Assembly (NCBI GenBank): GCA_003990765.1
Contig: RBNJ01000057.1
Span: forward strand, 1-45,844
Length of the DNA stretch: 45,844 nucleotides
Reading direction: 5' to 3'
Source: Jimgerdemannia flammicorona
Lineage: Eukaryota
Notes under the pieces: model-generated
Databases searched by the model: none
Told to the model about the DNA's origin: nothing
What the model saw: only the letters and a program-made list of their open reading frames with translations
Part shown: positions 12,524 to 45,844 of the stretch, piece by piece
Numbering within the stretch: the first letter of the stretch is position 1
How the letters are laid out: each line of letters starts with the position of its first letter
Position numbers and translations under genes: made by a program

Positions 12524-12524
<1 letters not shown>

Positions 12525-12580: not shown

Positions 12581-12581
<1 letters not shown>

Positions 12582-14735: not shown

Positions 14736-15282
14736 ATACTTCTGAGATTAAGCATCTGCTATATTATATCTAAGTACTTATTGGTTGATAATTTAAGACA
14801 AATATCTTACTTTTAAGCTAAACAATAAATAATTGATACTGTCTGAATACTTACTCAAGTTGAATCAAGATAGTTAGTAAGATAGATATAAGACTATTAG
14901 TATTCTATAGATATATATATCTCTGATAAATTTATTATTATTTTAGTTGATGATTTTGAGCAATATACTACTATAAGAAATCTATCAATAGTATAGCAAG
15001 TAGCCCTCATACTCTTTAGTCTCTGAGACTTAGTAAGAGCTATATTTATAGATATAAACTATATAGAACAAGATGATATCACAATATTAATAGTATAGAA
15101 GATCTGGTTGCAAACTATCTACTATATATATATATATATATATAAAATTAAGCAGATATTGAAGGACAAACTCAATATAATCTGTTAAGAATGAGTGAAG
15201 ATCCAAATATCTTCTATACTTAAATCTGCTATTAGATAATTTTTGTAGACTATGTTAATATTATCAGAGATCAGATAGTTGA

Positions 15283-17940: not shown

Positions 17941-18052
17941 AAGTGCTTATGCTTATTGTGTCCATATTGTCAGACTGATCTAATACTATTTTTAATATAG
18001 TATATGTGTTAGAGATTCATTTTACTAGCCACTAAGTGGGGCTCATAACCTT

Positions 18053-18168
18053 TGTAGTGGAATTCACTGGCAAAAGAGGGTGGTTTTTATTACTTACAAA
18101 GTTGCATATTTCATATAAACGATGTGGTGTAAAGTCACGTGTTTACATGTCGAGTTGTCATCCCAACA
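18053..18168 (-). repeat. 5' LTR (116 bp) of a third copia element, with intact PBS at 18038-18051
   Basis: TG...CA ends. 18122-18168 matches LTR 14689-14735 but keeps its CpGs. The adjacent GGGCTCATAACCT reads AGGTTATGAGCCC on the minus strand, the half-tRNAiMet PBS typical of copia. Confidence 0.8.
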
Positions 18169-20190
18169 GACCTCAGCCCCTCGCATTGGTGCTTTAAGTT
18201 CACTTACCTGGGCTGGGTTGATCATGAGGACGAATCCAAGCTGCAGCAGCAATTCCTTTGGTAAATGGCATGAGTTATTCGGGAAGACATTAGAAAGAGA
18301 GCGGTGGCCTTAGAACAATATGGACCATCCCCCCCAGTATTGGGACCTGCGAGATCGGAAGGGAGGGACGCCATAAGATATGTGAAGCCAACGCAACTCC
18401 ACCTCGTGGTGCCTTCTCGGCAATGTATTATTATTTTTAGATATTTCGGAACGTCGGGCATCCCAAACATTAGGCTACCATACATTTATTTGTCTGTGTT
18501 TTGCAATACATAGATGAAATATAAAACACTTTCAAATTATAATTATTATCAAATATTCAAACCACATTCCAAATATCTGGCCCTTGACGCCGGGCACTTG
18601 AAATCGTCACATTTCAATTGTAAAAGGCGAGTTTAAAGCGGCTGTAAGCGATCGAGCTTTCCGGAGCAATGTGATAAGAAGCGTAGCTGACCCATTTTTC
18701 AATTTATTAATTTAGGTGCAACAAATGCGTCGGAGTTCGTTGTTGATGGCTTGTCAGAACGTTGTCGTCGCCGGTACTTCAAATCTTCAATCGCGGTTAA
18801 ACTTCATCTACAAATATGACCTTGAAAAGATACTCACATGCGATCGAGCTGCCAAGGAAAGATTCCACCGTGGAAGAGATGGGTCGTCCTTTCTCTTCGC
18901 TTGCATGACAAACTGCTGCCTTCAGTATTGCACACGACACAATATAGCGTTCAATTCAAGTTTCTCCTTGCGTTCACAAATCTGGACGAGGCAAGGAGAT
19001 TGTTGCTCCCCAAGGTAAATCGAGTCACGTTTGGAATGATCAATTACCCAGTACGTCATTACAAATTTGGTCATTATTTATTTGCTTGAAACCCTGCAGC
19101 TGCCAAGCGCCACATCAGCGCCAGCTGCGGATATCGGTATGTATTACAATTTTGCACAACAACAGGCTTTGGAGCGAACAATGCAACCAAGAGCAATCCG
19201 TAGTCGACCTCGGTGAGCACGATCATGAAAGCACGCACGAGCATATGACTTGAAAGCCTAAGGAGCAAACGTTAACATATCATCACAAAATCACGTGACA
19301 TAATTACATGGCATACTTGGTGTATACACATGTGCTTACAGGTCCTCAACGGCACTCAATGCACGGTACCTGGAATTTATGATAAATGTGATCTGATAGT
19401 TACATTTACCCCGACAACCTTTTGGTTTCGAAGATGACATTAACAACGATTACAAATATTCTCCCACAGCCCAATACGATCACCAACATCAAGTTCTCCG
19501 GTGTCACTACAAACAGTGCAGTAAATGTTTGTTGGTATCAGGTCATCTTTCGTCGCACATTGGTCTCTGATTCGTGCTCTTTTTTTGTCAAACTGAAGAT
19601 AGCGTCGAGCTCAGCGGAGTTCAGCACGTTTTCTTGTGCTCGGAGATTTAAGGTACCTATATCAGCCGAAATCCACGTGACAGTTAAAAAGGAGCTTTAG
19701 CCTTTTCGTAGTCATGTTTTTCCTTGATGTAATTTTTCATTTGAGTTATGGCTAAGTGGGTAGCAAACTGAATCGTAAAGATATCTGTATATCCGCAATG
19801 TATGTTGCAATCCGTTTTGTGATGCTCGCATCGAGCCGCAAGAAAACGTACAGATGACAGAAGATGTACCGTGACTGTTGAATTTTTGCAAAGGTGACAC
19901 TTTGGTCAGATGCTGGGGCGGAATGTAACAGTCCAGCTGAGTTCATTGCCCATTACAAACATTACGCCTTTATTCTGACAAGCGCAACCGACAGTCAATC
20001 ATGTCATTATACCAGCGGATTTAAATATATATATATATATATTAGAAAACAACAAAGACGAAGTCCCCCACCTTCATCGGAAACCCTAAAAACCTGAAGC
20101 AGGTATATATACTTGGCAAACCAATCTTCCTACACACCTTTAATTCTACCTCTGTTACTTACTGATCGCATCTCATATAAAAAAGGACGC

Positions 20191-20718
20191 ATGGTCGTCA
20201 TCAAGGGCATTCTCCTGGCAATTCTTGGCATACTTGCGTTTTCAGTTTGCGGTAGTTTGGCCTTTTTCGAGAGAGACAGTGAAGAAACAAAGTTCGTTGA
20301 AGGTATACCTTTTATTGGCTACGTTGCCTCTGTCGTCCACGCGCGCGCCGGCAATCGTGATCACGCCAGGCGCGCTGCCGCCAAAAGCACCAATTCTCTC
20401 TTGAAGGCAACCGGCGCAATAGTTGGCGGCGTTGTAGGTGGCCCAGCTGGTGCCATCGTAGGTCGCGCGGCTATGAGTTCTGTAGGCGTTCGTGTCGAAT
20501 ATGCTATCGCCGAGCGCATTGAAGACGAATCTGTACGTTGCACTGTCGGGGCCGTCAAGCCAAAGGTATTCCTTCACGACATGGTATTTTCTGCAATTGA
20601 CGGAGGTATTGGAAACTTTGGTAGTTCTTTGGTAAAGAAGGGTTCCGTCAAAAAATTTCTCGCCGAACAAGCCACTAGAGTCGTGGTGGCTAAAGTCTCA
20701 AAAATAGCCGTATACTGA
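20191..20718 (+). CDS. Small secreted protein (175 aa) with N-terminal signal peptide and glycine zipper; function unknown
   Basis: Intact ORF from ATG 20191 with normal CpG content. Hydrophobic leader MVVIKGILLAILGILAFSVCGSLA, motif EGIPFIGYVASVVHARAGN, and zipper GAIVGGVVGGPAGAIVG. Confidence 0.75.
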   Translation: MVVIKGILLAILGILAFSVCGSLAFFERDSEETKFVEGIPFIGYVASVVHARAGNRDHARRAAAKSTNSLLKATGAIVGGVVGGPAGAIVGRAAMSSVGVRVEYAIAERIEDESVRCTVGAVKPKVFLHDMVFSAIDGGIGNFGSSLVKKGSVKKFLAEQATRVVVAKVSKIAVY

Positions 20719-21232
20719 AGCTGGCGTTTGCGAAACCTATCTCAGCGATTTAATATTTTTCTCGACATCTTCATTTGTTCCGGAGCTGAGCGATAAAATT
20801 TTTGTGCTATAGACGACGTGCTCTCTTGTATATCCACCAAAACTCTTATATTAGATTGCAATTTTCTGTGAAATAACAATTGTAAATAACTGACGCAAAT
20901 ACACGAAATCTTTCTAACTTTCCATGTGTGGCATGAATATATCCGACTACTTTGATGCGTTAAAGTGAGAAAAGTAATAAAGGTCACCTCGAAATTGTCA
21001 TGCAAAGTAACAAAATTCAAGTTACAACCGACACGTCAACATCAGCAACATTAATTATGCGACGGCGACCACCACCAAATCCACTCGATCCTCCAAAGCG
21101 ACGTTACTCCAACGTCAAAGGGAAATACCCGTCGTGCTGAAAAAATCTTATATCGACGTCATATCCGCACCATTTGTTTTACTTGTATAAGCCTATTAAA
21201 CAATATTCAGATAATGTGGAACTACTTCAGGG

Positions 21233-21820
21233 TCAGAAAGACGACACGCTGGAACTCTTCCGTGAAGTGCGATTACAGCGATTGCTTATTTTGCAAGTCA
21301 AAATCCTATCCGTGAGAAATCTCGGCAACAAGCCAGTCGAGTTCCACTCCTCTGCCTCTGTGACTATCGTCAAGTCTGAAAGTTCCCTTTTGTCATGGCC
21401 AAGAAGACCAAGACCGACAGGCTCTGAATGTTTTCCGGTGATTGTCATTTTTGCCACTGGTAAGGTCATTTAAATGGCTCTCGCTACTTTGATTAACCGA
21501 TTACCAACTCCCCTTTGCTGCTCCAATAACCGGTAATCAAACAATTGTCTATGTTTGTCATCGATTTTTATTTGGGTGAATGCGTGCATGAGGAATGCTT
21601 CTGTCTCGAATGCGTTGCATTGGTCAGTTTGATAAGAACCCGACATGAAGTGTAGAGGGATTAAAAACGTGAAGTAACGGCTAATAGTTTGTAGCGAAAG
21701 CGTAGAATTGGACATTGCGCAAAGTGCAGGAAATGCTCAAATATTATGAATAGAATATCCTGATCGAGTAATCGACGCGACGTGTCTTTAACCAGCAATC
21801 CCTTTCGGGATCCCTTCATT
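21233..21820 (-). pseudogene. Possible disrupted or spliced host gene with an F-box-like N-terminus
   Basis: Consecutive minus-strand ORFs (21661-22026, 21470-21715, 21233-21469). LLDQDILFIIFEHF weakly resembles an F-box start. No clean gene model can be built. Confidence 0.25.
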
Positions 21821-22736
21821 TTTGCTCCTAGTAATGAGAAATGGAAGATGTTCGCAGTAATATCTACCCTTCCACAGCGAAGCCAACTGTAGCCCTTGCA
21901 TAATTCAGACCAATTTCTGCTGACCTCGCCCCGTCTCAGTGAACCCATCTGAATGAAAAGCAATGGTATGAATGAAGTAACCGAGCATTTTGTTGCCTTA
22001 TTAAAGGAATCTCTCATGTCTCTCAATCGGAGGTCTTTCGATAAAGATACCTAAAAATACATCATGGCCTTACATTTGCTCAGTGGTACAGATTTTCATT
22101 TGATAGTATTAATATTAGTGGCATTAAAGTTTCAGGAGCTGAAGAATTAGGGCATTAAAAACACTTTCTTGATATATTATGCGAAAGCGACTCCGAACTT
22201 TAACGTGGAATGTATCTGGATCCCAATGGGAAGCGGAATATGCAAAATTTTATCCTCCAGGTATTGCCATCTCGGTGACATCGCTTGCTATATTCTGGCG
22301 TAAATTCTGATAACTCCGACAAGATCCTCGTTTATCATTGGTACATCGGCCACAGTCATTACGAAAAAAGCGACATATATTTTGCAATCATACATATACA
22401 TTGCACATACATACCTTATTGCTGCTAACTTGTTTGCTGTTGTGAACCAAATTGTCTTACATTACATTGATTTATACATCTTATGTGTAACTTGGTCTCA
22501 GGATCAAAAATTTTAAAAATTATACACCAAATATATACATCAAGATTCACGGCAACCAAAGTGGAATTTTATCACAAAAATAAAATAAAATAAAATAAAA
22601 TATAACCCCTAAGTATAGTGAATATTCTACTTGAATTACTTAAAGTTTATCTCTAAATATCAATCTTAATATTTATTTATTAAATATTCACAAAGGAGAA
22701 TATATCTGAATTATTACTCTATATATTGTAATGTAC

Positions 22737-23787
22737 TGTGACGCGCCAAACAGCATAGTATGTATAACCAGATGATGTGAATACCCTAGTTACCCTGTTG
22801 GTGCGGAAATCGTATAAATAATCAGATAGCCCAAAAAGGAAATGGGCAGTGAATGCAAATATCAAACCTATAGTTAGCCACATAGCAACCAGATAGCAAC
22901 CAACTTGTATAAAATACTCCAGAGACAAGAGTGAATAAACCTCAGTCTGGAAAGTCAAAGAAAAAGCAGAGAGCTTCCTTCTCACACTCCGGTCCACTTT
23001 CCAATACAAAGCCTGAGATTTGCCGCAAAAAGTTCGAGTGAAGAACTTCGCCGCCATTTGAAGAGAAACCCGCTGCTTAAGGAAAAGCCAAAGCCAGTCT
23101 ATTTGACACAACTTCGCAGTGAATTTACATTCGCGCAAACGAAGCCAGTCTTTGATGCAACTTTGTCAGTCAAGAAAGATATCCGCGCCATATTTTCGAG
23201 AAGTCTGCCATCTTGCTACAAAGCCAGTCTAGAATAAGACGCGAAGCCAGTCCCTCAACGTAACCTCGCGCAAATGAAGCAGTCTTTGATGTAACTTTGC
23301 TCAAGAATCCACGCCATTCCAGTTATTTTCAAGAAGCCCACTGAATCTGCACTCTCTGCCAAACTGAGTTATCCGAGTTATCTGCCAAAATCGAGTTATC
23401 CGCCAAAATCCGCTTAATACACAGAAATCGCATACTTTTGGAACAAGATCATCACGCCATAAATTGCATAAGGAAATCCACTTGCAGAGATTGTCACGCC
23501 GAAATTACACAATTTTGGAGGATTGTCGCACTATACAGAGATATCGCAACAACCCAAAGAAGGAAGCCTCTGAAATTACAAAGCGCCGCCCTACCCAAGA
23601 ACCGTCCTAATAAGGAAATCTGCCAGAATCAACCGCTGTATCCAGATTTGAAAATTATACTGCTAAACACCAACATCAGGAATTATAGAAGATTTTGTTG
23701 CTTTTTGACAAAGTAACTGGAGGCTCAAGCCAAACTACATAGTACCCCCAACCTTGTAATCTGTCTCTATTGAGCCAGCATGTTACA
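22737..23787 (+). repeat. 5' LTR of gypsy A (~1.05 kb)
   Basis: TGTGAC...GTTACA ends. TATA box TGTATAAAA (~22906) and AATAAA (~22934). Internal AAGCCAGTC and GAGTTATC repeats. Confidence 0.92.
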
Positions 23788-24831
23788 TTTGGGGGCTCAA
23801 CTGGGAAGATTATAAATCTACATGACTTTTCAGCTCACAAGAACTCAATAGAAAAACTGGATACATTTGATACAACACCAATCTCTACCACTAAAGGAGA
23901 ATAAGTCATGACCAGCATTTGGACAGGAAGAGAAGTAATCATCCCAAGACTTATCTATTAGAAGAATCTCAACCAAAAGTCAGTATGGTGCAGAATTCTC
24001 AGCCAGTACTAATAGTCTTACCACCAGATCAACCAGATCAACTAGACAATACAGACAGCCCTGCTAGAAACTTCAACAAGCTCAAGAACATAAAGACCTC
24101 ATTGCACAATCTCAGTTTCCCTCCAAAGATCCACTAGTCTCCCCCATTGAACTGCTACTAGAACCAGTAGTCACAGAACCAGAAGGACTAAGAATAGCTC
24201 CTTTAAGGTTATCTAGACCTACTGCACCTGACCTAAGATCAATAATACCATCTTTAGGATATTCAAGCATCTTAAGCTTTAGCAATAACTCAGAAAGTAA
24301 ATCAGAACCAGAATTAGAACCAGAATTAGAATTAGAATCAGAATTAGAAGAAAGTGATAATAAAATGACCACCTCAAACCAATCTTTGCAAGATATCCAG
24401 AAGAAGACCCAAGGGAATTCCTTGATAGAATTGAAGAAATTATAGCTCTAAAGAATCTTTCTATCTAGAGAAAAGTCACTATCTATAAGATCCAACTCAG
24501 AGAACCAGTCAAGAGAATTTTCAACTAAGTAGCAATTGATATATATTTAAACCTTCAAATAGCCATCTATATAGCACCATCCTGAGAAGTAGTATATAAA
24601 GCCATGATTCACTAGCTTATTGAGAAATATACAGAAAATGAAACCTACTATAAGGTCTAAAAATCTATTATAGAAATGAAGATAAATATTAGAGAATCAC
24701 CCAGAGTATACTTTATTAAAATCTAAAAAAGAATATATATAGCTAGATTCAATACTACTAAGACAACATTCAGGTGACACAAGACTCAGACAATACTTTT
24801 TCAATATTTTTGGTATCTGACGACTATCAAC

Positions 24832-26740
24832 ATGGATGGTAATGATTATACTGGTGAGCATACTGGCCAGGGGGGTGGTAGTGCCTTTGGCTGGCAGCAG
24901 GTGGAGAGGAGGGGTGATGGTTTGGGGATGCCAGAGGCCTCGATGGCTAGCTGAGGCCCTGGTAGTAAAGGGAGGAGTGGTCTGAGGCAGAGAGGAGGGG
25001 AGAGGTTAACCTTTGCTGATAAGGTCAGAATGGAGAAGATGGCTTCTGGTCTAGATGGTTGGCTGGGTCTGGGGAAGACATTGATGGCTGCTGCTGGGGG
25101 CCTAGAAGGTGTGCCCAGGGGAGCTTCTGATGGAAGAGTAGGAATGGAAGTAGGGGCTGAAGATGTGACTGTTGATGGGGCTGTGACTGGGAATCTGGCA
25201 AAAAATCCAGATGTGATGGTGGTTGGCAATTCAGGATAAGGGGTGGGCGCAAGGCCCGGGGACCTGGCAGATGGGGTGACAGGAATAGTGTCAGCCCCAT
25301 TACTCAAGAAGTCGAGGTTGGAATTCGCAGTCACAATGAGTTTCTAGGACTTGGCAGTGATGGCGAGGATGATCTTGGGGCTGGTGGCATAGGAGGCTAA
25401 GGGAGCAGCCTTGGTGAAGTTTTTGAAGGGGAAGGAAGGGGTTGAGGTGGGGTTCAAGGAGGAAGATGCCTTACTGGCAGCCTTGGAGAAGAGAGTGACC
25501 ATTGGTGGTGTTGTGGTCTCTATGGCCAGGTGCATGTGCTGAGACCCTCACGTGGTGTAGTTGATGGTATTGGATCTCTCTACAGTGTCGAAGGAAAGGA
25601 CCAGGGAGTTGGTGGTGGAGGTGATCAAGGAGTATGGAGAGATTGGGAATGTTTGGTTCAAGGTCTGGGAGGGTATGGAGCTCTGGACTGGTGACGTTGA
25701 TGTCAGGGTAAGGCTGGCTAGAAAGGAGAATATGGGGAAGTCAAGGGACTGGCCAGTGGTGCTGAGGTGGGGACTGGTGGAGTACAAGGTCATGAGGGTT
25801 GGAGGAGGAGAAAGACCTGCTAGAGGCTCTGGAGGATCTGGAAGGGGCAGTTGCAAGGAGGAGATTGGCCTGGAAGGAGTTTGAGATCAGGACGGTGGTG
25901 GGGGAGGTAGATGGGAAGAGGGTCTGGATGAAGAGGGGGGTCTGGGAGAAGATGCAGGGGAGGAAAATCCAGAAGGAGCTGTTGGTGAAGTTGGGTGGGG
26001 GTAGAGCTGGCAGAAGCTCAGGGGAGGGGGATGCGGGATTGCAGGAGAGCACCTGGGCTGTGGGGGGCAAAAGGGCCTGGGGTAGGACTCAGAATGGATT
26101 GGAGGAGGAGAGGGAAGGCAATATGGAGGCAGATGTGGAAATGAGCAAAGGTGTACACCCCCAGTATAATGTCCTGGGTGGAGCTGAGGGGAGGAGGAGC
26201 TGCTGGATGTGCCGGATGAGGAGTGGGATGAGTCAGTAAGGAGGAGCACTCTGGTGGACCCTGAGGGGGATGGGGGGCAAATCGTCCAGGGTATGGTGGA
26301 GGCAGTGGATGAGGAGAAGTGGATGTGGAAGACTCTGGAAGGGGTAGCAGCAGAGGAGCTGGGGGGAGAGGATTTCAGGGTTATGGAAGAGAGGCATTGG
26401 GAGGAGATCCTATGGGGGGAGGAGGTGCCAAGGAAGATGAGGAATGAGATCCTGACTATTCTCCTTGAGTTAGTTGAGTATCAAGTTGATGATTGGAGAG
26501 AAGAGGAGCTTAGTAAGATTGTGAGTAACTGGGTATATATTATACTTGTGGAACTCAAGGAAGGGACTGGAGAAGTGGCATACAGTCTACATAGACTACT
26601 GGTCAGAGATGGAGGTAGTGGATGGGGTGGAATATCAGGAGATCTTGGAGACACTGGATGCTCAGGCTACTGTGGAGGGAGACTTGGAAGCCAAACAGTG
26701 CTTGGATCTGGCTGGGGATGAGATGAGTATGGAATACTAG
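24832..26740 (+). pseudogene. LINE ORF1 (second copy)
   Basis: Homologous to 6610-8633 (e.g. FKVWEG..TGDVDVRVRL, DWPVVLRWG, AAEELG, MSMEY*). Confidence 0.75.
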
Positions 26741-26771
26741 ACTGGGATCTCTATTGCAACATTCTTTTAAT

Positions 26772-29700
26772 ATGAATAGTACAACTAAGATATTCTCTTT
26801 GAATGTAAATGGGTTACAGGGGGTGGCTAGGAGGAAGTATATATTGGATGGCTTAAGGGACTGGATGCGGACCTCTTCTTGTTGCAGGATATTCATTATG
26901 AGGCAGATGTGAATTTACAGAATTGGACTAAGGAATGGGGGGGGGCAGTGGTATGGAGGAAGAAAGTGGGTATTCTAGTTCAGAAAGGGATGGGGGACAT
27001 TGGGGACATTGGACACTGGGGGTCTTGGGTGGTGTGGGGAGTGTGGAAGAGGCCTGGATGGGGCTTGTTGACAGTTGAGTCTTGTTACTGCCTGGCTGAG
27101 AGAGGAGAGGGTGGATTGGATCCACAGGTTGAAAGAGGCTGGTATCTTAGGTGAGGTTGGGTTGGACTGCCTGGGGGGTGATTTCAACATAGTACAGGAT
27201 AAGGAGATGGATCGAACAGATAGCAGGAGGGGCATGCAGGGCAAGAGTAGTGGGCTGGGTGACTGGTTGGAGATGGAGAGGTTGAGCTTGTTAGTGGATT
27301 CAGGAAGACAGTTTTGGGACAATCGGCAGGTGTACACCTACTGGGCAGCAGGGCTGGGCTCTAGGATTGACTGGGTTTTGATAGAAGAGTGTTGGGGGGC
27401 AGATGTCTGGATGGTGCTGGAGGTAGTTTGGTGTCCATGGTCAGATCACTGGGGGCTGCTAGGTGGGGGGAGGTTTGGGGAAAGTGAGGATGGGCCTGGA
27501 CATTGGTGACTAAATTCTTCCTTGTTGGAGGATAGGGCTTTGTGGGAGGGTTGGGAAGTAGAGGTTATCAGGAATATTGGAAGGTAGTGGATATGGGGCT
27601 TAGGGATTGGAGACCACTGGAGGAGACTGAAGGTGAATACTCAGGGGTATTGGAGAGAAGCTGGGAAAGGAAGGTGTGCTCAGCAATGGTGGTGGGTGCT
27701 GTGGGCCTCGCAGTACCTGGAAACACTCTTGGGGAGATGGGCAGGTATGCTAGAAGATGGGAAGGTAACTGACTGGCATATTGTGAGAATCCAAAAGGAG
27801 GTGGAGGAGCTCAAAGGAGTGTTATGTAGTAAGGAGGAGGCAAGGCTGCAGGGGATGGTGGCCCAACTGCAGTGGCAGGGGCTTGAGGAGGGAGAGAGGC
27901 TGACTAGATTTCTGACATAGTTGTTACAAGCAAGACAAACGAAGCAGTGGTGGGAGGGGGCTCTGGATGCAAATGGCGAGCTGGTGGTGGGGACTCAGAT
28001 GATTATAGATTTACTGAGAACCCATTGGGAGAATCTATGGAGTGAGGAGGAAGGAGGCATGGATGCCTTGGACATTGAAAGGCAGCTGGGAGATTGGCAC
28101 CCGAACCCTGTGCTGGGCCTAGGGGCTTTGGGGGACCCAGTGAGTGAAGAGGAAATATGTAAGGTTGTGGCCTCAATGAGTAAGGGGATGGCTCTGGGGG
28201 AGGATGGACTTCCCTGGGATTTCTGGAAGAAGATGGCTGGGGTGGGTGAGGTGCTGGAGGAAATGACCACTATGTGTAATGAGGTTCTTCAGTCTGATAC
28301 TTAGATTGGGGGACAGCACCTAGGGCTAGTCTCTCTGCTCTATAAGAATAAGGGGAGACAGGAAGATTGGAAGAACTGGTGTCTGATCATACTACTCGAC
28401 ATGGACTTCAAACTAGTGATGAAGATCTTGGTGATGAGGTTGTAAGGAATCACTCAGTAAGTGCTTGGGGTGGAGCAGCATGGGTTTGTAGGTGGCTGGT
28501 TGATTTTGCAATGGGACAGCCTGGGTCTATGGAGTGATTGAAGGTGCCCAGGCTACAGGGGTGGATGGCTGGTTGGTATTTTTGGATCAGGAGAAGGTAT
28601 ATGATAGAGTGCAGAGGATCTGGCTAGAAGGAGTGTTGAAACAGGTGGGTATTCCCCTGGGGTTCCAAGGATCGCTGGTCAGTCTCTTGGAAGACAGTCA
28701 GGCTGCATTGGTCATCAATGGCCACAGGGGGGTGACCTTTCCCCTAGGTCGTGGGGTGCCACAAGGAGACCCCTTGTCACCCATATTGTATGCCCTCTCC
28801 CTGGAGCCCCTACTGGACAGGATTCAGCATCAAATTGGGGGTTTGGACATTCTAGGGATTAATTGGAAGGTGGGGGCCTTTGTTGATGACATAGTGGTTG
28901 AGCTGGGCTCCTTGATGGATATGGGGGAGTTACAGAGGTCTGTGGAATGATATAAGAGGGGATTGGGTGCTAAACTGAACTGGCACAAATATGAGACTCT
29001 GGTGTTAGGTGCTGGAATTGTTGGTGGCAATGTCATTGGGACAGTGGTACCAGCTGGTGAACTAGTGTGCTATTTGGGGATCTACTTTTCAGTGTTCAGA
29101 TCTCTTCTTTCCCGTACTTAATGGAACTGACAACTTCTGGAGTGGGGAAATGTCCTGCTGTGATGGGGAGGTCGGCATATGTCCCCAGCCAGCAGAGTGA
29201 TGGTGCTGAATGTGTATTGGATACCAAAGCTGTGGTATGTGGGGTATCATTTGGATTTTCCACCTTGGGTGGTCAGGGGGCTGTTGAAGATGGCAAGGTC
29301 ATGGATCTGGAGAGGGCAGCAAAGCCAGGTGGGGTGGGAGGTGCTCACACTGCCTGTGGAAAGAGGTGGGCTAGGTTTAGTTGACTTTGCTAAGTGGCTT
29401 CATTGTTTGCGAGCCTGGTGGTTGCAGAGGGCGAGTGAGCTGAGGGGTCAGGAGTGGGTGCCACTCATGCAGAGGGTGTGGGAGGTTCAGTATTCCCCTC
29501 ATGGTAACTCTGGTGACTTGCTTGCGATGGTGGCCATGGATGAGAGCAGGAGGATGTGGTTTATGGGCTTTTGGTGGGGGGTGGTAGATGGTGCTAAGAA
29601 AATTGGACTTCGGTGGCAAGGTGACAAAGCTGAAGAGGATTGGGGACTGCAGATGTGGCAGTGGGATAGGCTTCTGCTGGGTGGGGTTCTAGTGGAGGTG

Positions 29701-30432
29701 TTTCAGCTTGGTGAGGGTATGGAGTATCTGCAGGGCTTGGGTGGCGACCTGTGGCCCAAGGCCTGACAGAGGGTTGGGATTGGTGAGGAGTGGGATTGGA
29801 ATAGAATCTGGCATCAGAGTAAACAGATGAGGCAATGGCTGCCCCCCAAGTTCTGGGTGGTGTGGTAGTGGGTCCTACAGTGGAATGTGATATTGAACTA
29901 TTGGTCTGGGCACTTGGTGGATGGTGGAGTATTTAAGTGTGAGGAATGTTTCAATGTTGGTCAGGAGGGAGGAGTGGTACAGACGCCTGAACATTGGCTT
30001 GGTGAGTGCAAGGTTTTGGAGGAGTTTTGGGGTTATATCATGGACTAGTTAGGGCTGCATGCCTTGGAGGGAGGGAAAGGGGGGAGATGGGGAGAGCTCT
30101 GCCAGAGACTGGCTGGTGGGGTTGGGAATGAATAGCTGACCCTTGGCTGGGCTCTGGCCATGTAGGTTGGATTAGCTGGGCATTGGGTTCATATATTTGA
30201 GGAGGGATAGTGGGTTGGGGTTTGGGACAAGGTGGTACATTGGAAATGGCAATTATTGGACATTTTGAATAGCTGGTGGCAAGGGAGGGGGCCGGGTGGG
30301 AGGAATTGCAGGGGTTTGGTACAGTGTATCTCCAGAAAGAGTAGTGGGAGGATTCGGGTGGTGGGTGGCTGGGTTGTACTTGGATAGAGAGAGGTTATGG
30401 GGAGAGGGTTGGGTCCCCGGAGCATTGGTTGA
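26772..30432 (+). pseudogene. LINE ORF2 (APE-RT-CCHC), second copy
   Basis: Motifs SLNVNGL, GGDFN, SRIDW, SDH, GVPQGDPLSP, FVDD, CEEC..EHWLGEC; ends PRSIG*. Confidence 0.93.
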
Positions 30433-36550: not shown

Positions 36551-37045
36551 ATGGCCCAAAGAACTGACTAGTGTCTCCTAACTCTCATCTTTAGCTCCTT
36601 CTAAGCTCTGTTTATTTCTCTGTTTTAGTTTCACTTACTTGAAGGAACTTTAATATAATTTATTCAAAGATACTAAGAAAACCTCATCATTATCCTGAGG
36701 CTATAACAGATCCACCACCTGCAGACCTTCTATAATATTTGATAACTATGTAAGAATAATTATATATATATAGAAGAACCAGCCAGTATAACTCACCAAG
36801 AAGCTCAAACTGCAAAAAGGCTCTATATCCTATACAAATAAAACAAAGGAGCTCTAATATATACTCACTTCTGTTTAACTAATATTTATCAGATGAATGA
36901 GACAATCTTTCAGAGCATTCTCTAATAAGTAAATGTTCTATATACCAAAAAACAGAAGGAAGACCCAGAATTAGAATAGTGTTACCCAGATATAAAAGAA
37001 GATAATGATACAGGAGTAGATTCAGAAGATGTCTATGGATATTAG
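36551..37045 (+). pseudogene. Extra ORF3 downstream of integrase in gypsy A
   Basis: ATGGCC overlaps the integrase end. One frame with point-mutation stops. Contains TAKRLYILY...GAL, similar to ORF3 of B. Confidence 0.6.
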
Positions 37046-38056
37046 AATGATAATTAAAAAATAGTCTAAGAAAGACTACGCTTTAGTAAGGGCTAATGTG
37101 ATATGTCAAATAGCATAGTATAATCAGATCACATGAATACCATAGTTACTCTATTGTTATAAAAATCATATAAATAACCAGATAGCCCAAAAAGGAAATA
37201 GACAGTAAATGTCTGCTAGATAGTAGATGTCCACTATATAGTACATGTCCACCAGATAGTAGATATCTACCCCCAAATAGTAAACCTATAGTTAGCTACA
37301 TAGCAACTAGGTAACAACTAACTTGTATAAAATACCCCAGAGATAAGAGTGAATAAACCTTAGTAAGAAAAAGCAGAGAGCTTCCTTTTCACACTCTGGT
37401 CCACTTCTGATACAAAGTCTGAGATTTGCCACCAAAAGTTCAAGTGAAGAACTTCACTGCCATTTGAAAAGAAACCTGCCACTTAAGGAAAAGCCAAGGC
37501 CAGTCTATTTGATGCAACTTTGCAGTGAATTTACATTTACACAAACGAAGCCAGTCTTTGATGCAACTTTGTCAGTCAAGAGAGATATCCGCACCATCCA
37601 AGTTATTTTCGAGAAGTCTGCTATCTTGCTACAAAGCCAGTCTAGAATAAGATGCACCTTCGCAGTGAAGCCAGTCCCTCGACGTAACCTCATGCAAACG
37701 AAGCAGTCTTTGACATAACTTTGCTCAAGAATCTGTGCCATTCCAGTTATTTTCAAGAAGCCTGCTGATTCAGGAAGAATCCACGCCCTCTGCCAGCTGA
37801 GTTATCCGAGTTATCCATCAGAATCGAGTTATCCACCAAAATCCGCCTAATATGCAGAAATTGCATACTTTCAGAACAAGATCATTATGCCAGAAATCAC
37901 ATAAGGTCACGCAGAAATTGGAGGATTGTCGCGCTACAAAGAGATATTGCTAAGGGAGCCACTGAAATTATAAAGTGCCGCCACACCCAAGAACCATCAC
38001 AATAAGGAAATCCACCAGAATTGACCACTGGATTTGACTATTATACCACTAAATAC

Positions 38057-38523
38057 TGTGACAGTATAACCAGATTTGGAAGAAGGAAATAGGGAATAGA
38101 CACTTGATCGCACCCAGTTCCAAAGTAGTATAGCCATATAGTTAACAGTCCTCGATTCCGCAACTTACTAAATATTTTGCAAAGTGCAAGATCGAGCTCC
38201 CCGATATAGTATAGCATTTTGCAACTGGTGAAACATTTTGCAAAGTGTTAAATGACTCATAACTTAGCCACGTAACTCAGTAATCATCTCATAGCTAGCA
38301 AACTTGTATAAATAACCCAGTATCTTTGAGTGAATAAACCTCAGATCGAAATAGTTCAAAGCAAAGAGATAGCAAAGGAACTAGTAAGCCTATGGGCAGA
38401 TACACTTCAAACTCACCCACTCTCTCCTGCAACTTCAAGAGACTCTGCGAGAGTCAGAACAGTCAAGTTTTCAAGATATAGAAATCCGACATACTTTCAA
38501 GAGTAAGCATCCGCTACATTACA
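38057..38523 (+). repeat. 5' LTR of gypsy B
   Basis: TG...CA ends; about 95% identical to 44293-44759 by hand alignment. Confidence 0.95.
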
Positions 38524-38637
38524 ACTTGGTGCCCATTGGCTGGTGATTCAAGATGAATCCCTCACTTTCAAGCTGAACAATGAATAACCACCACCACTTG
38601 AACAACCATACAAACCAAGCCCCAATACCCAGACAAG

Positions 38638-41600
38638 ATGGATATGAGACCACCAGTATTCTATGAATATACCTCAGATGAATCGATCATCACCTTCATT
38701 GACGATTTCGAGCAGTATGCCACTGTAAGGACCCTGACAGTAGCACAGTAAGTAGCCCTCATGCCCTTTAACCTATGAGGCCCTGCCAGAGCAGCATTCA
38801 CAGCTGCAACCCATGCAGGAAATAATGCTAATGCTGTACTGACAGCACAGAAGACCTGGCTCTGAAATACATATTATACAGATGAGATCAAGCAAGCCCT
38901 GAAGGATCAGCTCAATACAACATACCAAGGAATGAGTGAGGATCCAAACACATTCTATACCAGAATTCGATATCAGATAATCCTTGCAGACTATGCTGCT
39001 GCTACCTAAGATCAAGTAGCCGAAGTAACCTTCATGAAAGGAGTCCATTCAGAAATAGCCATGGCCATCCGCTTATCACCAGTAATTCTGGATCTGCCAC
39101 AGAGGGTCACCTATGCTCAGCGATACTGGATAGCCAGACATCCACAAGACCATACAATGGAAAGGGTTACAGGAGTCAGAATCGAGGCACCCAAGGCAAC
39201 CAGTGTGATCCCTACCACAATGATCAATTGAAACACCCCTCAGCCAAAAGCTACAGAGCAGCAAAAGAACAGTGACCCTATGGAGGAACTCGCCAAAAGG
39301 TTTGCCAAAATGACTGCCCACCTGGGAGACGTGGTAAAGGAAATTCAAGGAAGAGACCGCCGCTCTGTCCAGAAGTTTTCTGTCACCTCAGACAAGAAGA
39401 AAGGCACCTGCTACACTTGTAGAGAAGAAGGCCACTACTCCTATGAATGCATGAGTGAAACCAAGCACAAGGCTCAACCAAGCAATGCTACATGAAACAA
39501 GGAGCAGGCCAATATAATTACCTTTGAGGAGATCAGAGATTCTGATGAAGAAGAATGGAAGACCTATCCTGCTCAGACCACCAAGAAGGATGCTCGCAAA
39601 GAACCCTACAAGAGACCACCGGGAAGACCCAAGAAGAACCCAGTAGAAAAGCAGATGGAAACTGCCATGGAAAGCCAAGCCGAAGAGATGGACCAAGATA
39701 TAGAGCTGGAGCAAGCAGTTCAAGATATCATCTGAGGAACCACTCTAGCCAGTGAAGGAGAAAAAGAGAAGAAGCTTCGCAAGACCAAGACCTTCAAGTA
39801 TGATATCTTCAAGGACCTCAGCCAACAAAAGGTCAATGCAACCTTTGGTCAGCTTGCAGAAATCCCAACATTCAGACAGCAAATGAGGTTTGGACTTGCC
39901 AAAACAACTAAGGAACAGGGATGGAAGATAACTGAGGCCAATAATGCTCAAGAAGACTCAGGAGAAGAAAGTGAGGACAATCGCAAAACCTCTGCATATG
40001 CAACATGCCAAATTGAAGATAGAATCTTTGAGGCCATCATTGATATGGGAGCAGGAGGATGTCTCCTCAGCAAGAAGGCAGCAGACTGCCTAGGTTGGGA
40101 TGTGGAAGAAGCAACTAAGCTGGTGTTCATCACAGCCGATGGCACAAGAGCCACACCCCTGGGAAAGATCCAAGACGTTCGCATCAAGATTGGAGGAGCA
40201 ACTATCCCAGTAGATGTAATCATAACCAATGCCACCAACTATGACATCCTCATCGGCAATCAATGGCTTCACAAAGCCAATGCAGTAATTGATCTCAATT
40301 CCCAGAAGATGCAGATCACCTACTAGAGACAGAAGATATGAATTCCCATCAATGTCAATAAAGGAGTCCTGTCTGATATGAAGGAAGAAGAGAGTGAGCA
40401 AGAGGAAGCTTATATGGTGACTACTCCAAAGAAGAAGAAAGTCAGATGAATGAGTGAAGAAGAATAGTGCAAGAAGATGGCAGAAGGCTATGCACTATAA
40501 GGAGTCTGTCCTCATAGGATCAAAATGTACTGCATGGAGCATATCAATGATTGCTACCAGTGCACTATTGGAATCAGAAAGATCCACCAGGAAAGAAGGC
40601 AGAAAGCTCTCGAAAAACAGATCAGAGAAGAAGAGAAGGAGGAAGATGATGAACCACCAGCTCTTCTGGAGGACAGTGATGATGAAGAAGAAATCAAGGT
40701 CAAGATCCGAAAGATCCACCCTGATGCAGTCTTACCAGAATACAAGTCAGAAAATGCAGCCGAAATGGACATCACTACAGTAGAAGAGACTGTACTGGAA
40801 CCCCAGACAACCACCCTACTTGCAATCAGATTGGAGATGACCATCCCAAAGGACCATGTCAGGATTCTCAAGACAAGAAGCAGCCTGGCTAGAAGCGAAA
40901 TTACAATCGAAGGAGGAGTCATCGATTCAGACTATATCGGAGAAATTCTACTCATTGCTAGGAATCACAATCCTACAATCCCATTTCCAGTCAAGAAGAA
41001 GGACCAATGGGCACAAATGTTGATCTTTCCGATCCTACAACCAAAGATCATAGAAGTCAAGAAGCTGGAGGATACAAGAAGAGGAAAGAAAGGATTTGGA
41101 TCCACAGGAAGAGGAGTATTCACCAACACCAAGATCACCGAACTTGAGCATAAGAAGGAGAAAAACACAAGCAAGCATAGCTACACCATCGGAAATGAAT
41201 TTCCACTCAAGAAAGAACTCAAGAAAATACTCCACGAATTCGAAGATGTCCTTGCCACAGATTTCAAGGATATCAAAGGAAAGACCCCACACTACTATCA
41301 CAAAGTAGATACTGAAGACACTGAACCAATTTATCAGAAGGCAAGGCCTGTCCCGTCAGCCTACTGAGAATGGCTCAGAGAAGAAATCAAGCAGATGGAA
41401 GAAGCCAGCATCATTAAAGAAGCAAGCAGTCCCTGGTCCTCACCTGTTGTACTGGCCCTGAAAAAAGGAAGCAAGCCTGGAGAATTCGCCCCAAGACTCT
41501 GTGTCGACTACAGAAAACTCAACATGGTTACCAAGAAGGATCGCCAACCACTGCCCCTCATCAATGACATTCTCATAATACTGGGAGATGAAGCACAGTA

Positions 41601-42597
41601 CTATAGTACTTTGGACTTATACTCAGGATTCCACCAAATCGGACTCACAGATATGGTAAGTGAAAAGTCAGCCTTCATCACTCCAGATGGAATCTATGTC
41701 TATCTATGAATGCCATTTGGAATGTGCAATGCACCAGCAAGTTTCCAGTGAATGATGAACAAGATCTTCTGCTATGACATAGGAAGATGGATGATGGTCT
41801 ATGTTGATGATGTAATCATCTACAGCAAGACACCTGAGGAACATCTGCAGCACATACAGCAGATAATGGAGAGACTAAGACAACATGGCCTCTACATCAA
41901 ACCCAAGAAGTGCAAGTTTGCAGAAATCGAGATCTCCTATCTTGGCCACATCATCAATCGAGATGGAACATACATGGACCCCCTCAAGATACAAGCAGTG
42001 GCAGCATACCCAAGACCCACCACTGTCACGGAAGCCCAAGCCTTCATGGGACTTGCCTCCTATTATCGAAGATTTATTAGAGGATTTTCTAATATTGCAG
42101 GACCAATCTATGAACTTAACAAGAAGGATACCAAGTTCCAGTAGACTGGCAGATAACAAAAAGCATTTGATGAACTCAAGGTCAGACTGACCCAGACACC
42201 CATCTTCAGAAGATCTGACTGGACTCAAGAATTCATCCTACAGACTGATGCAAGCGCACAAGGACTAAGAGTAGTCCTAGCTCAAAAGAAAGATAAAGTG
42301 GAGTATGTCATCACATACCTCAGCCACGGAACCCAAGGAGCTGAAAAAGAATATGAATCCTACAAGTTGGAATGCCTTGCAGTCATCTGGGCCATAGAAA
42401 AGTTCCACTACTACTTGGCTGGAAGACACTTCACTATCCAAACAGACCACTCAGCTCTCACCTGGCTACTGACAACTGGACAACCCAAAGGAATCTATGC
42501 CAGATGGATAATGAAGTTGCAAGCTTATGATGTAACCATTGTATATCACTCTGGAAGAACCAATGCCAATGCAGATGCCCTCTCACAGACACCCTGA
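38638..42597 (+). pseudogene. Gag-protease-dUTPase-RT-RNase H polyprotein of gypsy B (single frame, premature stops only)
   Basis: All ORF fragments share one frame. Motifs: CYTCREEGHYSYEC knuckle, AIIDMGA (DTG changed by C>T), dUTPase, SPWSSPVV, RLCVDYRKLN, YVDD, TDAS, TDHSAL, NADALS. Confidence 0.93.
40696..41109 (+). other. dUTPase domain within gypsy B pol
   Basis: All five trimeric dUTPase motifs: AAEMDI, TRSS, GGVIDSDYIGEI, WAQM, RGKKGFGSTG. Confidence 0.92.
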
Positions 42598-42622
42598 AGG
42601 ACCCCACCCCCACAAAATCGCC

Positions 42623-43816
42623 ATGAATAAGGAGCTCTACTATGGAATTATCACATACCTGGGACAGCGAAAGATGCCCCAACATCTGGAAGAATGGACA
42701 CAAATGATTATCAACAGAACATAGAAACAATTCGAAACTGACGGAGAAACACTGAAGAAAGGGAAACTACTAGTCATACTAGAATACAAGAAGGAGCAAG
42801 CAATAAAATCAGTACACAAACTTGGCCATCTAGGAGGAATGAATACATATGACAAGGCAAGGAGAACAATATGGTGGCCAGGGATGGAGGAAGATATTAG
42901 ACAATTCATCAAGACTTGTGACAAATGCCAGAAACAGAAACAAGACTAACGAAATCAAGCCTCAGGATCAGCACATATAGAACCAGTACCATTAGCCCAC
43001 ATTGCAATGGATATAATTGGCCCCCTATCCTTGACTTTGACTGGCAACCAATACATCATCATCATCGTAGACCTCTTTATGAAGTAGATAGAAGCAGGAC
43101 CCCTCAAAGAAGCCAATGCACAGTCAATCACTGATTTCTTCTACAAGGAAATCATCTGCTGGTTCAAGACCCCAATACAAGTAACTATAGATAGAGGAAC
43201 CGAATTCGTGAATCAGTTCTTCGAAGTTCTCTACAAGAAGTACAAGATCCAGCATATTTGGACTATAGCATATCATCCTCAAGGAAATGGACAAGTAGAA
43301 AGGACCAACAAAACCCTCAAGAATGTTATTGCCAAGATCTGCAATAACTACGAGAACTGGGATCACTATCTACCAATAGCATTATCTGCTCTCCGGGATA
43401 TCTGATCACAAAGCACCCACTTTACCCCTCGAGAAATGCTGTTTAGAGAAGAATGTTCTCAGGGAACCTTGTCATCCAATGGAGATACCATATAGAAACA
43501 TGTGGACATGGAAATGCGAAGACTACACCAAATCAGGAAGAAGGCTGAGGATTACATAATGAAGGCACAGACACTACAATGGAGGAATGCGGAAAAGACC
43601 CACAAACCCTTGGAGATTATCAAGATAAGAGACAAAGTCCTAGTGTATCAGAATATAGTTGAAGCTTCATGGTTATGAAAACTGGAGCCCAAGTGGGAAG
43701 GACCTTACCTTGTGCAAGATATAAAAGGAACCACCTTTTGGCTATGAAAACCCTCAGGCACAATAATCCCCACCACTATTCATCGAAACCAACTCAAGAA
43801 ATATCATGGCCAGTAA
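42623..43816 (+). pseudogene. Integrase of gypsy B, in a separate (+1) frame
   Basis: HHCC motif (HKLGH...CDKC), MDIIGP, DRGTEF, YHPQGNGQVERTN, KLEPKWEGPY. No chromodomain is visible. Confidence 0.92.
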
Positions 43817-44255
43817 TAAAAGTACTGCGATGGTACTCAAGATCACTAGTGCTGCTCAAAGAGCCATCGAGAGCACCGAGCCTCCGACCATAGAGGAGTC
43901 TTATGACAGTATCCAAAGTATCATGCAGACTCATCTCTCTTGGATCTCACACTTCAAGGCCTATCAGCATCGGAATGAATTCCAAGAGTACTTCAAACTT
44001 GGCCAAGTACTCAACCAAGACCCGGAAATGACCAAAGAAAATTGGATCACAAAATGCCAGCTCTCCTATTCTCAGATCACCATTGCCAAAAGAATCCACA
44101 AGCTATTCCGAGAGGATGAATCAGCACTAGCTCACCTGCGAGGAGTGACTCCCTCAGACTTTGACTGAGTCAGGTGACACCATTGGGAAACAGTGATATA
44201 ACAAATCATGCAATACAAGACCATACAGACCATTGAAGCTTGGGAGTTTGAATAG
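43806..44255 (+). pseudogene. Extra ORF3 of gypsy B (~149 aa if TGA/TAA are read as CGA/CAA); function unknown
   Basis: 120 codons are open from ATG 43806, which overlaps the integrase end. Similar to ORF3 of A. No signal peptide or transmembrane segment. Confidence 0.75.
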
Positions 44256-44292
44256 ATGCTTTAGGGATGAGATCATCTATTCAGGAGGAAGT

Positions 44293-44759
44293 TGTGATGG
44301 TATAACCAGATTTGGAAGAAGGAAATAGGGAATAGACACTTGATCGCACCCAGTCCCAAAGTAGTATAGCCACATAGTTAACAGTCCTCGATTCTGCAAC
44401 TTGCTAAATATTTTGCAAAGTGCAAGATCAAGCTCCCCGATATAGTATAGCATTTCGCAACTGGTGAAACATTTCGCAAAGTGTTAAATAACTCATAACT
44501 TAGCCACGTAACTCAGTAACCATCTCATAGCTAGCAAACTTGTATAAATAACCCAGTATCTTTGAGTGAATAAACCTCAGATCGAAATAGTTCAAAGTAA
44601 AGAGATAGCAAAGGAACTAGTAAGCCTGTGGGCAGATATACTTTGAACTCACCCACCCTCCCCTGCAACTTCAAGAGACTCTGCAAGAGTCAGAACAGTC
44701 AAGTTTTCAAGATACAGAAATCCGACATACTTTCAAGAGTAAGCATCTGCTACGTTACA
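44293..44759 (+). repeat. 3' LTR of gypsy B
   Basis: Direct repeat of 38057-38523. Confidence 0.95.
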
Positions 44760-44884
44760 ACACCAACATAAGAAATTATAGAACATTTTGTAGCTTTTTC
44801 ACAAAGTAACTGGGGGCTCAAGCCAAACTACATAGTACCCCCAACCTTGTAATCTACCTCTATTGAGCCAGCATATTACAGTAC

Positions 44885-45619
44885 CTAGCACAATAGAGAT
44901 AAATTACAAGTTTGAGCAGCTATGTAGATTGACTGAGCCTCCAGTTACTTTGTCAAAAAGTAACAAAATGTTTAATAATTTCTCTCTCAAAAATAGGTAC
45001 AAGTTCTCTTGTTTACTTAATATAGACAATTTTGGAGATTTTCTAATTAAGTACAGATTTAGTATAACTTGATAAATTTGACAGATTTCTCAAAGTAGCA
45101 GATATCTTCAAAGTATCAGCTAAGTTCTTCAGGCTTAATCTGATAAGCAAACTAAAATTGGCAGACTTCTTCTTTATATCAGAAAGTGGACTAGAGTAGA
45201 ATTAGACAAAGCTTACAATCTTTTAAATAATAGCTTTAGAGCAGATATTTCTCCTAAATATTATAATTCTTTTTCTTTAAGATTAAGTGGCTTTTGGCAG
45301 ACATATGTATCTCTTGAAGTATATTAGACAGACTTATCTTTTGCTTTTAAACTTTTCACAATAAGGTTTATTCACTCAAATCTCTAGAATATTTATACAA
45401 GTATAGTTATTATCTAGTTACTATCTGGATAATTACAGAATATATAGTAAGACTAACTTAGATGAGATGTAATTTCTTGTCCTATATAAGACAGATGTTC
45501 TCTGCAGAATAGATATTCTACTTGAGATAAGTATTTTAATTAGAATAGATATTTCAGTTAGAATAAAATCAATATATCTAACTTGATATACTTGGTTATT
45601 TATACAAATTATAACATAT
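44885..45619 (-). repeat. Older inverted LTR (C) related to the gypsy A LTR; its terminal bases lie at 22727-22736
   Basis: The minus strand contains TTTTTGACAAAGTAACTGGAGGCTCAG and CTTGTATAAA..GAGTGAATAAACCT. Joining TGTAATGTAC to CTAGCACAATAGAG restores an LTR end (..ATTACA). Confidence 0.75.
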
Positions 45620-45844
45620 TGTGACGGTACAGCCAGATTTGGAAGAAGGAAATAGGGAATAGACACTTGATCGCACCCATTCCCAAAGTAGTATAGCATC
45701 ATAGTTAGCAGTCCTCAATTTCGACATTGTCTAATTTCTTAGACATTGTCTAAATTTTAGACATTATCCAAATCGAATACCCCGATTTAGTATAGCATTT
45801 AGACATTGTCCAAATGTTTCGACAAAGTCCAAATGACTCATTTA
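45620..45844 (+). repeat. Start of another LTR (D) related to gypsy B, running off the window
   Basis: The first ~100 bp are nearly identical to the B LTR start. It then diverges into short GACATTGTC tandem repeats. Confidence 0.85.

Follow-up and report, generated by a model that had tools for sequence, protein, structure and literature searches.

The window analyzed here, a stretch of 45,844 nucleotides (nt) of Jimgerdemannia flammicorona DNA (assembly GCA_003990765.1, contig RBNJ01000057.1, positions 1 to 45,844 of the forward strand), contains a 6.7-kb Ty3/gypsy (Metaviridae) long terminal repeat (LTR) retrotransposon, hereinafter element B, that houses a third open reading frame (ORF3; 43806..44255; this and all other features given below are on the plus strand) downstream of the integrase (IN) frame. 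ORF3 starts with the ATG at 43806, ends with the TAG at 44253-44255 and is in the +1 frame relative to IN, exactly as described in a preceding analysis that used the letters of this DNA and the translations of its frames (the sequence-only reading). The end of IN reads TAT CAT GGC CAG TAA, with the IN stop at 43814-43816, and is overlapped by the ORF3 ATG; the whole interval from the IN stop to the polypurine tract (PPT) is filled by ORF3. Comparison with relatives from metagenomes indicates that this is a decayed copy of a 153-amino-acid (aa) orphan accessory gene that appears to be confined to one Ty3/gypsy family. In the window, the frame is open for 120 codons only and is interrupted by in-frame stops at 44166 (TGA), 44175 (TGA) and 44199 (TAA); sense codons of the relatives occupy all three stop columns. 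The window copy also has a 12-nt in-frame gap after codon 22, corresponding to four codons that are kept by all other N-terminally complete members; this is the only indel among the aligned ORF3 proteins and, with its 4 codons, is hence in frame. The 150-codon frame of the sequence-only reading is the ancestral state of the gene and not the present one. The element B copy is dead throughout, with stops at 18 of the 1327 codons of gag-RNase H (RH), 7 of the 397 codons of IN and 3 of the 149 codons of ORF3.

Eight of the nine candidates from an indexed search of 5.8 billion proteins match ORF3 (E-values from 2e-55 to 5e-29, 70-79% identity); all eight come from metagenome sources, with clusters of 1, 6 and 2 members. 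The alignment of the 153-aa database relatives spans 43806-44252 in full, with 79% identity, and the family set includes 15 database proteins plus L001, a 6479-bp metagenome contig that was found as a single locus from 440 pattern matches in a metagenome scan. L001 is a near-intact relative of element B, with 74% nucleotide identity: a single stop is present in each of its gag-RH frame (in gag) and its IN frame, and no stop interrupts the 153 codons of its ORF3. Full-length open 153-aa forms of ORF3 are represented by P0001, P0010 and L001:5795-6253. The viral contigs yield no further locus with either ORF3 or IN as the query, and no further ORF3 locus is found in the genome contigs searched. 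Among the four metagenome runs compared, X1, X2 and X4 have contigs over the ORF3 part of the element, and 1768 contigs of one run map onto element B; in the metagenome contigs aligned to the window, depth is reduced over 44006-44236. Positions 1-140 of L001 comprise the 3' end of a further ORF3 copy (13 codons), a PPT and the start of an LTR, followed by the full element, and the two ORF3 tails in this contig differ in sequence; the start of L001 represents either a tandem array with a shared LTR or an assembly wrap-around.

Element B displays the features that define the Ty3/gypsy group, namely an LTR pair, a primer-binding site (PBS), a PPT and the order gag(CCHC)-protease (PR)-reverse transcriptase (RT)-RH-IN. 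The 5' LTR (38057..38525) and the 3' LTR (44293..44761) are direct repeats with 95.3% identity over 469 nt. The putative PBS TGGTGCCCATTGG (38527..38539), located 1 nt 3' of the LTR, and the PPT AGGAGGAAG (44283..44291) were identified by reading the sequence, and both are conserved in L001, the PPT beside both LTR starts. The decayed ORF1 (38638..42630) encodes gag, PR, dUTPase, RT and RH in a single frame and shows 68.7% identity to the L001 gag-pol over 1322 aa in a tblastn comparison. The gag portion contains a zf-CCHC domain (Pfam E-value 6.3e-05), and the dUTPase domain (40729..41109), located between PR and RT, matches PF00692 with an E-value of 9e-24 (84.1 bits, cut-off 22) over residues 69-195 of the 40525-41367 ORF; the L001 layout is identical. 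The PR region is recognized by collinearity with the L001 gag-pol and not as a Pfam match; the RT/RH region is recognized by the same collinearity, and the top Atlas cluster for the L001 pol includes RVT_1 and RT_RNaseH_2. The IN frame (42623..43816), which is +1 relative to RH, contains Integrase_H2C2 (E-value 1.2e-16) and rve (E-value 1.7e-09). A Pfam scan at E <= 1 detects no chromo family in IN (42803-43805, with stops read as X) or in ORF3; the chromovirus branch is ruled out for element B by the absence of a chromodomain match after integrase. With its dUTPase, element B conforms to the dUTPase-bearing gypsy elements of the basidiomycete and bdelloid types.

The evidence that ORF3 is a gene comes primarily from the comparison of element B with L001, which involves one pair of DNA copies analyzed by the Nei-Gojobori method. 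Across 146 codons of ORF3, the proportion of nonsynonymous differences (pN) is 0.192 and that of synonymous differences (pS) is 0.758, a saturated value, so that pN/pS is about 0.25. The corresponding pN and pS are 0.180 and 0.713 for gag, 0.131 and 0.682 for RT-RH, and 0.098 and 0.551 for IN. No stop interrupts the ORF3 frame of L001, whereas its two alternative sense frames contain 8 and 9 stops and its antisense frames 5, 8 and 15; only 3 of 20000 shuffles of this ORF are stop-free. The GC content at the three codon positions (GC1/GC2/GC3) is 0.51/0.39/0.47 in ORF3, compared to 0.53/0.40/0.48 in gag-RH, and the codon-frequency cosine to gag-RH drops from 0.859 for the ORF3 frame to 0.698 and 0.735 for the two shifted ones. 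Given the gag-like pN/pS, the stop-free frame and the pol-like codon composition, ORF3 is judged to be a selected accessory gene: by these sequence criteria, it is a protein-coding gene of the element B family under purifying selection of approximately the same strength as gag. The proposal of the sequence-only reading that ORF3 is a selected, soluble accessory gene distinct from env thus holds for the element B family, in view of the pN/pS against a 26%-diverged relative, the open frame in independent copies and the element-like codon usage; neither closure of the ancestral frame nor neutral evolution is what the full-length relatives, open over 153 codons, and the B-L001 pair, with pN of 0.192 against pS of 0.758, display.

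The predicted ORF3 protein consists of about 153 aa, with an isoelectric point of 6.8-8.8 and a grand average of hydropathy (GRAVY) of about -0.6. No hydrophobic stretch or transmembrane segment is detectable in it, the maximum Kyte-Doolittle mean over 19 residues being 0.19-0.46, and six helices are predicted. The description of the product as soluble and helical-looking, made from the letters, is borne out by these hydropathy values and by an all-helical prediction that is of low confidence. A Pfam search at E <= 1 identifies 0 families for ORF3, and an exhaustive phmmer search of 1,835,955,588 representatives gives 3 hits at E <= 0.001, all from its own family, so that no cellular homologue is found among these 1.84 billion sequences. 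None of the 214 candidates for fused or longer forms of ORF3 scores at E <= 0.01. A profile search against PDB sequences yields a best E-value of 0.13, hhalign gives a probability of 0.3% for a relationship with the gag of the element itself (no relation), and an Atlas search by features retrieves only unnamed or unrelated clusters. Several matches stay below the cut-off or at the noise level. HTH_Tnp_Mu_2 is hit by 3 of the 15 members (residues 5-63, E-values of 0.031-0.18, 12.3-14.8 bits against a cut-off of 20.5) and ZW10_C2 by 1 of the 15 members at E <= 10, below the cut-off; neither is taken as evidence of a relationship. The top VIA rows do not contain the helix-turn-helix fold, the ORF3 models being of low confidence, and the RSV M2-1 core domain, which is present on both VIA lists with Z of 5.2 and 5.4, is noise. 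No enzymatic motif is detected in ORF3. Thus, as far as the searches of sequences reach, the ORF3 protein is an orphan with no detectable relative outside its family, and it does not coincide with any retroelement domain described in Pfam or represented in the PDB sequences, nor with any fold above noise. An env-like identity (of the errantivirus, Athila or Bagy2 type) is ruled out by the length of 153 aa, the lack of a hydrophobic segment and the lack of a match to the env families of Pfam.

Very few of the extra genes of LTR retrotransposons have a known function, CERV of the Cer1 element being the clearest case. Non-env extra ORFs in LTR elements are already known as a kind, and the sequence-only reading was too narrow in its premise that the extra ORFs of gypsy elements are env-like as a rule, given that non-env ORFs occupy the same position in Cer1 of C. 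elegans, in bdelloid rotifers and in plants. CERV of Cer1, a C. elegans Ty3/gypsy element, is a non-env orphan ORF at the same position and is needed for genomic RNA export (PMC10309623); similarly to ORF3, it has its homologues restricted to a narrow range of hosts and is partly helical, and, in its case, the element itself needs it (PMC10309623). However, CERV consists of 517 aa, has a G-protein-like domain and is expressed from a spliced mRNA with five exons, gag exons being shared (PMC10309623), whereas ORF3 consists of 153 aa and has its own ATG overlapping the IN end. No relationship to CERV is apparent, either as a sequence match (the three own-family hits being the only ones in the exhaustive phmmer search) or as a fold match above noise. 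The bdelloid elements Juno, Vesta and TelKA are Ty3/gypsy-like, carry a dUTPase between PR and RT, lack a chromodomain and possess family-specific, often non-env ORF3s; in contrast to the gene discussed here, those encode GDSL esterases, DEDDy exonucleases, paramyxovirus-type fusion proteins or proteins with transmembrane and coiled-coil regions (PMC5408684). The GDSL esterase and DEDDy exonuclease families have no match in the 15 members or in the L001 ORF3, even at E <= 10, and there is no Pfam match of these kinds in ORF3.

Among fungal Gypsy elements, a dUTPase between PR and RT is described in PosPlaTy3-5 of Postia placenta and in elements of Phanerochaete and Tuber, and an 'add. ORF' of unknown function is drawn for such elements (PMC2864245); however, this survey is centered on chromodomain-bearing elements, whereas element B has no chromodomain match, and the 'add. 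ORF' and ORF3 are compared here by description only. Thus, a dUTPase at this position is reported for both basidiomycete and bdelloid elements (PMC2864245, PMC5408684). The additional ORFs (aORFs) of plant elements, such as Athila and Bagy2, resemble ORF3 in position and orientation, in their presence across family copies and in being conserved to a similar degree as other element proteins, and their function is mostly unknown (PMC7264820). These plant examples differ from ORF3 in being env-like, with transmembrane domains, and, in the case of Bagy2, spliced (PMC7264820); ORF3 lacks a hydrophobic segment and is far shorter. Both sense and antisense aORFs occur in plants, and an antisense aORF is described in Boty of Botrytis (PMC7264820). 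With 15 database proteins plus L001 and a pN close to that of gag (0.192 and 0.180, respectively), ORF3 falls under the definition of a conserved aORF. Literature searches by terms, the literature not being searchable by sequence, found no description of the ORF3 protein.

The three coding blocks of the element are staggered in the same way in B and L001, with IN +1 to RH and ORF3 +1 to IN. An IN-frame ATG is located at 42623, 5 nt before the RH-frame stop TAA at 42628-42630 (ATGAATAA), and this junction is the same in L001. The ORF3 ATG precedes the IN stop by 8 nt in B and by 39 nt in L001; the nucleotides around it, atcATGg in B and accATGg in L001, include A at -3 and G at +4, and a stop in the ORF3 frame is located 14 codons upstream of the ATG in both. 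The conserved split of pol, with IN +1 to RH, is unusual for gypsy elements and, as a feature of the sequence, suggests recoding or restart. In the RH/IN overlap, L001 (4530-4650) reads CCC CGA AGG, and B has TGA in place of CGA (window 42540-42660). Where metagenome contigs are joined across the RH/IN junction, 82, 88 and 112 nt are skipped (all 1 mod 3); these skips may represent divergent stretches rather than deletions.

Taken together, these observations are most readily explained if ORF3 is a true, lineage-specific accessory gene that belongs to one dUTPase-bearing, chromodomain-less Ty3/gypsy family, of which the window holds a dead copy; the probability of this explanation is estimated at about 0.6. 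Because there is no homologue and no confident fold, the nature of the protein, its position and precedent are the only guides to its function. Tentatively, judging by its conserved start codon and context, ORF3 could be translated from its own AUG, either on a 3' RNA that would be subgenomic or spliced, or on the full-length RNA, where integrase translation would be followed by restart or +1 recoding. Equally tentatively, by analogy, the protein might be a non-enzymatic adaptor that would bind the RNA, the particle or the integrase of the element and act in RNA, particle or integration steps, paralleling CERV of Cer1 and the small accessory proteins of retroviruses rather than envelope proteins. 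The Rev, Rex, Rec and Vpr proteins of complex retroviruses are non-enzymatic, largely helical adaptors of about 100-190 aa that are encoded 3' of pol and act on viral RNA export or on host factors. They differ from ORF3 in being produced from spliced mRNAs, and ORF3 shows no sequence or fold match to them and no evident arginine-rich motif.

Several observations weigh against this interpretation. The relatives are 64-84% identical among themselves and so form a narrow family, and, with two DNA copies available, the selection estimate comes from a single pair in which pS is saturated. The AlphaFold models are poor, with a mean pLDDT of 60.5, and 63.0 for residues 33-139; Foldseek finds no match at E <= 0.001 (0 of 147 in PDB and 0 of 427 in BFVD), and the best VIA Z values of the two ORF3 models, 7.4 and 5.8, are under the noise level for helical models. 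The assignment of function is based on position and analogy. The four runs compared consist of contigs, which are silent on transcripts and splicing. Finally, neither the RH/IN nor the IN/ORF3 junction folds better than shuffled sequences (z from +0.6 to +1.6). Known restart sites rely on a structured RNA element, and there is no sign of an element of this type here because neither junction folds stably.

The sequence-only reading went further and presented ORF3 as conserved in two divergent gypsy families, the second being the decayed element A located immediately upstream of element B. The LTR of element A (37094..38056) is paired with 22734-23670 (78-79% identity in self-BLAST), and element B is inserted directly after it; the slot between IN and this 3' LTR (36551..37090) is fully decayed, with stop counts at the chance level. 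Element A holds a long interspersed nuclear element (LINE) insertion, and its interior has a GC content of 30%. The distinction between the LTR bodies of A and B made in that reading is corroborated, self-BLAST at E <= 1e-10 giving no A-B LTR match. The pol genes of A and B are related (z = 11.1 for RT and 8.6 for the IN C-terminus, with 0 of 200 shuffles reaching the score in each case), and IN ends with a ...KKY motif in both elements. Accordingly, ORF3 might be an old gene common to a clade of gypsy families, with the A slot being its decayed homologue, a scenario that appears less probable than a lineage-specific origin although it retains some plausibility. The slot has a size of about 0.5 kb (36571-37093) that is similar to the size of the one in B (43817-44292), it follows an IN C-terminus that is clearly homologous to that of B, and its ATG is in the same +1 register to IN, although 4 codons further from KKY. 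On the A slot, the ORF3 profile attains 4.2 bits, in the frame chosen in the sequence-only reading and in a roughly collinear fashion; 2 of 290 same-size tiles elsewhere in the window and 8 of 500 codon shuffles do as well. However, within A itself, 2 of 36 tiles from the AT-rich interior also attain this score.

The remaining comparisons count against homology of the A slot with ORF3. There are 15 stops in the frame of the sequence-only reading and 13 and 14 in the other two over 180 codons, compared to 14.0 +/- 3.6 in shuffles, so that no frame of the slot has fewer stops than expected by chance; the 150-165 codon ORF ascribed to both elements is accordingly to be found in B, as the ancestral frame, and not in A. 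The A/B protein alignment made by eye corresponds to a tblastn match at 36788-36919 with an E-value of 5.1 (18.5 bits), and six unrelated places in the window give better hits. In a decay-tolerant DNA alignment, the slot gives z = -0.6 against B and 0.3 against L001, the scores being equalled by 149 of 200 and 72 of 200 shuffles, respectively, whereas the IN and RT controls give z = 3.3-11.1 (0 of 200 shuffles). The profile and N-terminal tests are marginal (p of about 0.01-0.06), the ATG-anchored N-terminal similarity ranking 79 among 1375 ATGs. A protein search with the A slot (stops as X) gives no match, and nothing outside the B family is found among the 1.84 billion representatives. Loss of signal in the slot would not disprove homology because ORF3 evolves twice as fast as IN. 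Nevertheless, the A/B alignment is essentially not significant against shuffled controls, the outcome that had been set beforehand as speaking against the two-family claim, and cross-family conservation of ORF3, in the sequences compared here, is not supported. In practical terms, the ORF3 of the window is a dead relic, and its conservation across families lacks support.

Another explanation, which appears unlikely, is that ORF3 is not a separate gene and is instead a C-terminal extension of integrase, produced via programmed +1 frameshifting and standing in for the chromodomain as a module for targeting or tethering. The frame relationships fit this scheme, the +1 shift from IN to ORF3 repeating, in B as well as in L001, that from RH to IN, and the start of IN is limited to an internal-looking ATG, so that recoding or restart seems to be needed for the synthesis of IN. 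Yeast Ty1 and Ty3 frameshifting and ribosome stalling at CGA provide the basis for reading CCC CGA AGG in the RH/IN overlap of L001 as a possible +1 slip site. The scan of IN without a chromodomain hit is also compatible with a replacement module: the chromodomain of chromoviruses is likewise an extra module directly after the IN core and C-terminal domain, where targeting functions reside. However, the chromodomain is in frame with IN, whereas ORF3 is in another frame, has its own ATG, is predicted to be all-helical and has no Pfam chromo match. Furthermore, the ORF3 ATG and its favorable context are conserved in B and L001, the ORF3-frame stop 14 codons upstream in both leaves only a short window for a shift, and no Ty-like slip motif is seen in this window by reading the sequence. 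The lack of a fused IN-ORF3 protein among the 214 longer candidates at E <= 0.01 points in the same direction, weakly, as gene callers do not predict frameshifts.

Improbable, too, is a role of ORF3 in countering host defence (RNA silencing, cytosine methylation with the ensuing mutation, or uracil-based restriction) rather than in the replication machinery. Host pressure of this kind is heavy, as the strong CpG depletion of the window's transposable elements shows, and fast-evolving orphan proteins are typical of host-parasite interfaces. Element B already carries a dUTPase, an enzyme usually interpreted as protecting the cDNA (PMC2864245). However, the pN of ORF3 is no higher than that of gag, so that no sign of an arms race is seen at the present sampling depth, and ORF3 shows no similarity to any known suppressor.

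A composite scheme, of similarly low probability, would have both IN and ORF3 recoded from the genomic RNA, by stop-coupled restart or +1 slippage, with ORF3 forming a new class of integrase- or RNA-binding accessory proteins and the A slot being a relic of it, which would make ORF3 clade-wide. This scheme is based on the layout, in which each cistron is +1 to the preceding one and the AUG is located just before the upstream stop, the two overlaps in B measuring 8 and 11 nt. The fungal hypovirus CHV1 provides a known case of restart after termination (PMC2699510). If true, the recoding scheme would combine a translation strategy and an accessory function that term searches of the literature, which is not searchable by sequence, did not find described for LTR retrotransposons.

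The interpretation of the ORF3 frame as a chance ORF, a conserved cis-acting RNA or DNA region, or a recently captured fragment of a host gene is highly improbable: no database homologue gives ORF3 a function and gene capture by LTR elements is known (PMC7264820), but this interpretation is hard to reconcile with the pN/pS of about 0.25 (with pS saturated), the frame that lacks stops where the other five have 5-15 and that only 3 of 20000 shuffles leave open, the codon-position composition equal to that of pol, the lack of a cellular homologue among the 1.84 billion representatives, and the presence of ORF3 in sub-lineages that differ by 26% in nucleotides.

Extra genes of LTR retrotransposons show how these elements meet needs that Gag and Pol do not cover, among them RNA export, targeting and evasion of host control. 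Being small, soluble, selected and abundant in soil and root metagenomes, ORF3 is a tractable candidate for a minimal retrotransposon accessory protein. The element that carries it combines a dUTPase with the staggered three-frame layout, its most unusual feature.

Element B sits directly after the LTR of the A-type element (38053-38057). The 122 nt following it (44759-44880) match the sequence after the 5' LTR of A (23666-23787) with 92.6% identity, and an inverted copy of these 122 nt follows at 44885-44983 (82%); in contigs of other runs, which lack B, 38053 is connected to 44774-44801. At 45616-45844, the beginning of a third LTR of the B type (86-92% identity) is truncated by the window end. 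A B-related gag-like fragment, with 66-67% nucleotide identity to B and split by an insertion, is located within 14736-16901. The LINE-like non-LTR elements (1-12500 and 24000-30400), with RVT_1 at 10330-10866 and 28504-28950, show about 64-68% mutual identity, and one of them interrupts element A.

The ratio of observed to expected CpG is 0.27 in B, 0.02 in the interior of A, 0.06 in 1-12500, 0.10 in the LINE at 24000-30400 and 0.65-0.88 in 12500-23670, and transitions dominate the differences between the window and related metagenome contigs. Both observations are in line with repeats that decay by C>T changes driven by methylation. Neither Rfam families nor tRNAs are detected by scans of the window. 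A 206-codon stop-free frame (20098-20718), with a glycine-zipper-like stretch and weak C19orf12-like and Gly-zipper matches below the cut-off, may be the sole gene of the window that does not belong to a transposon.

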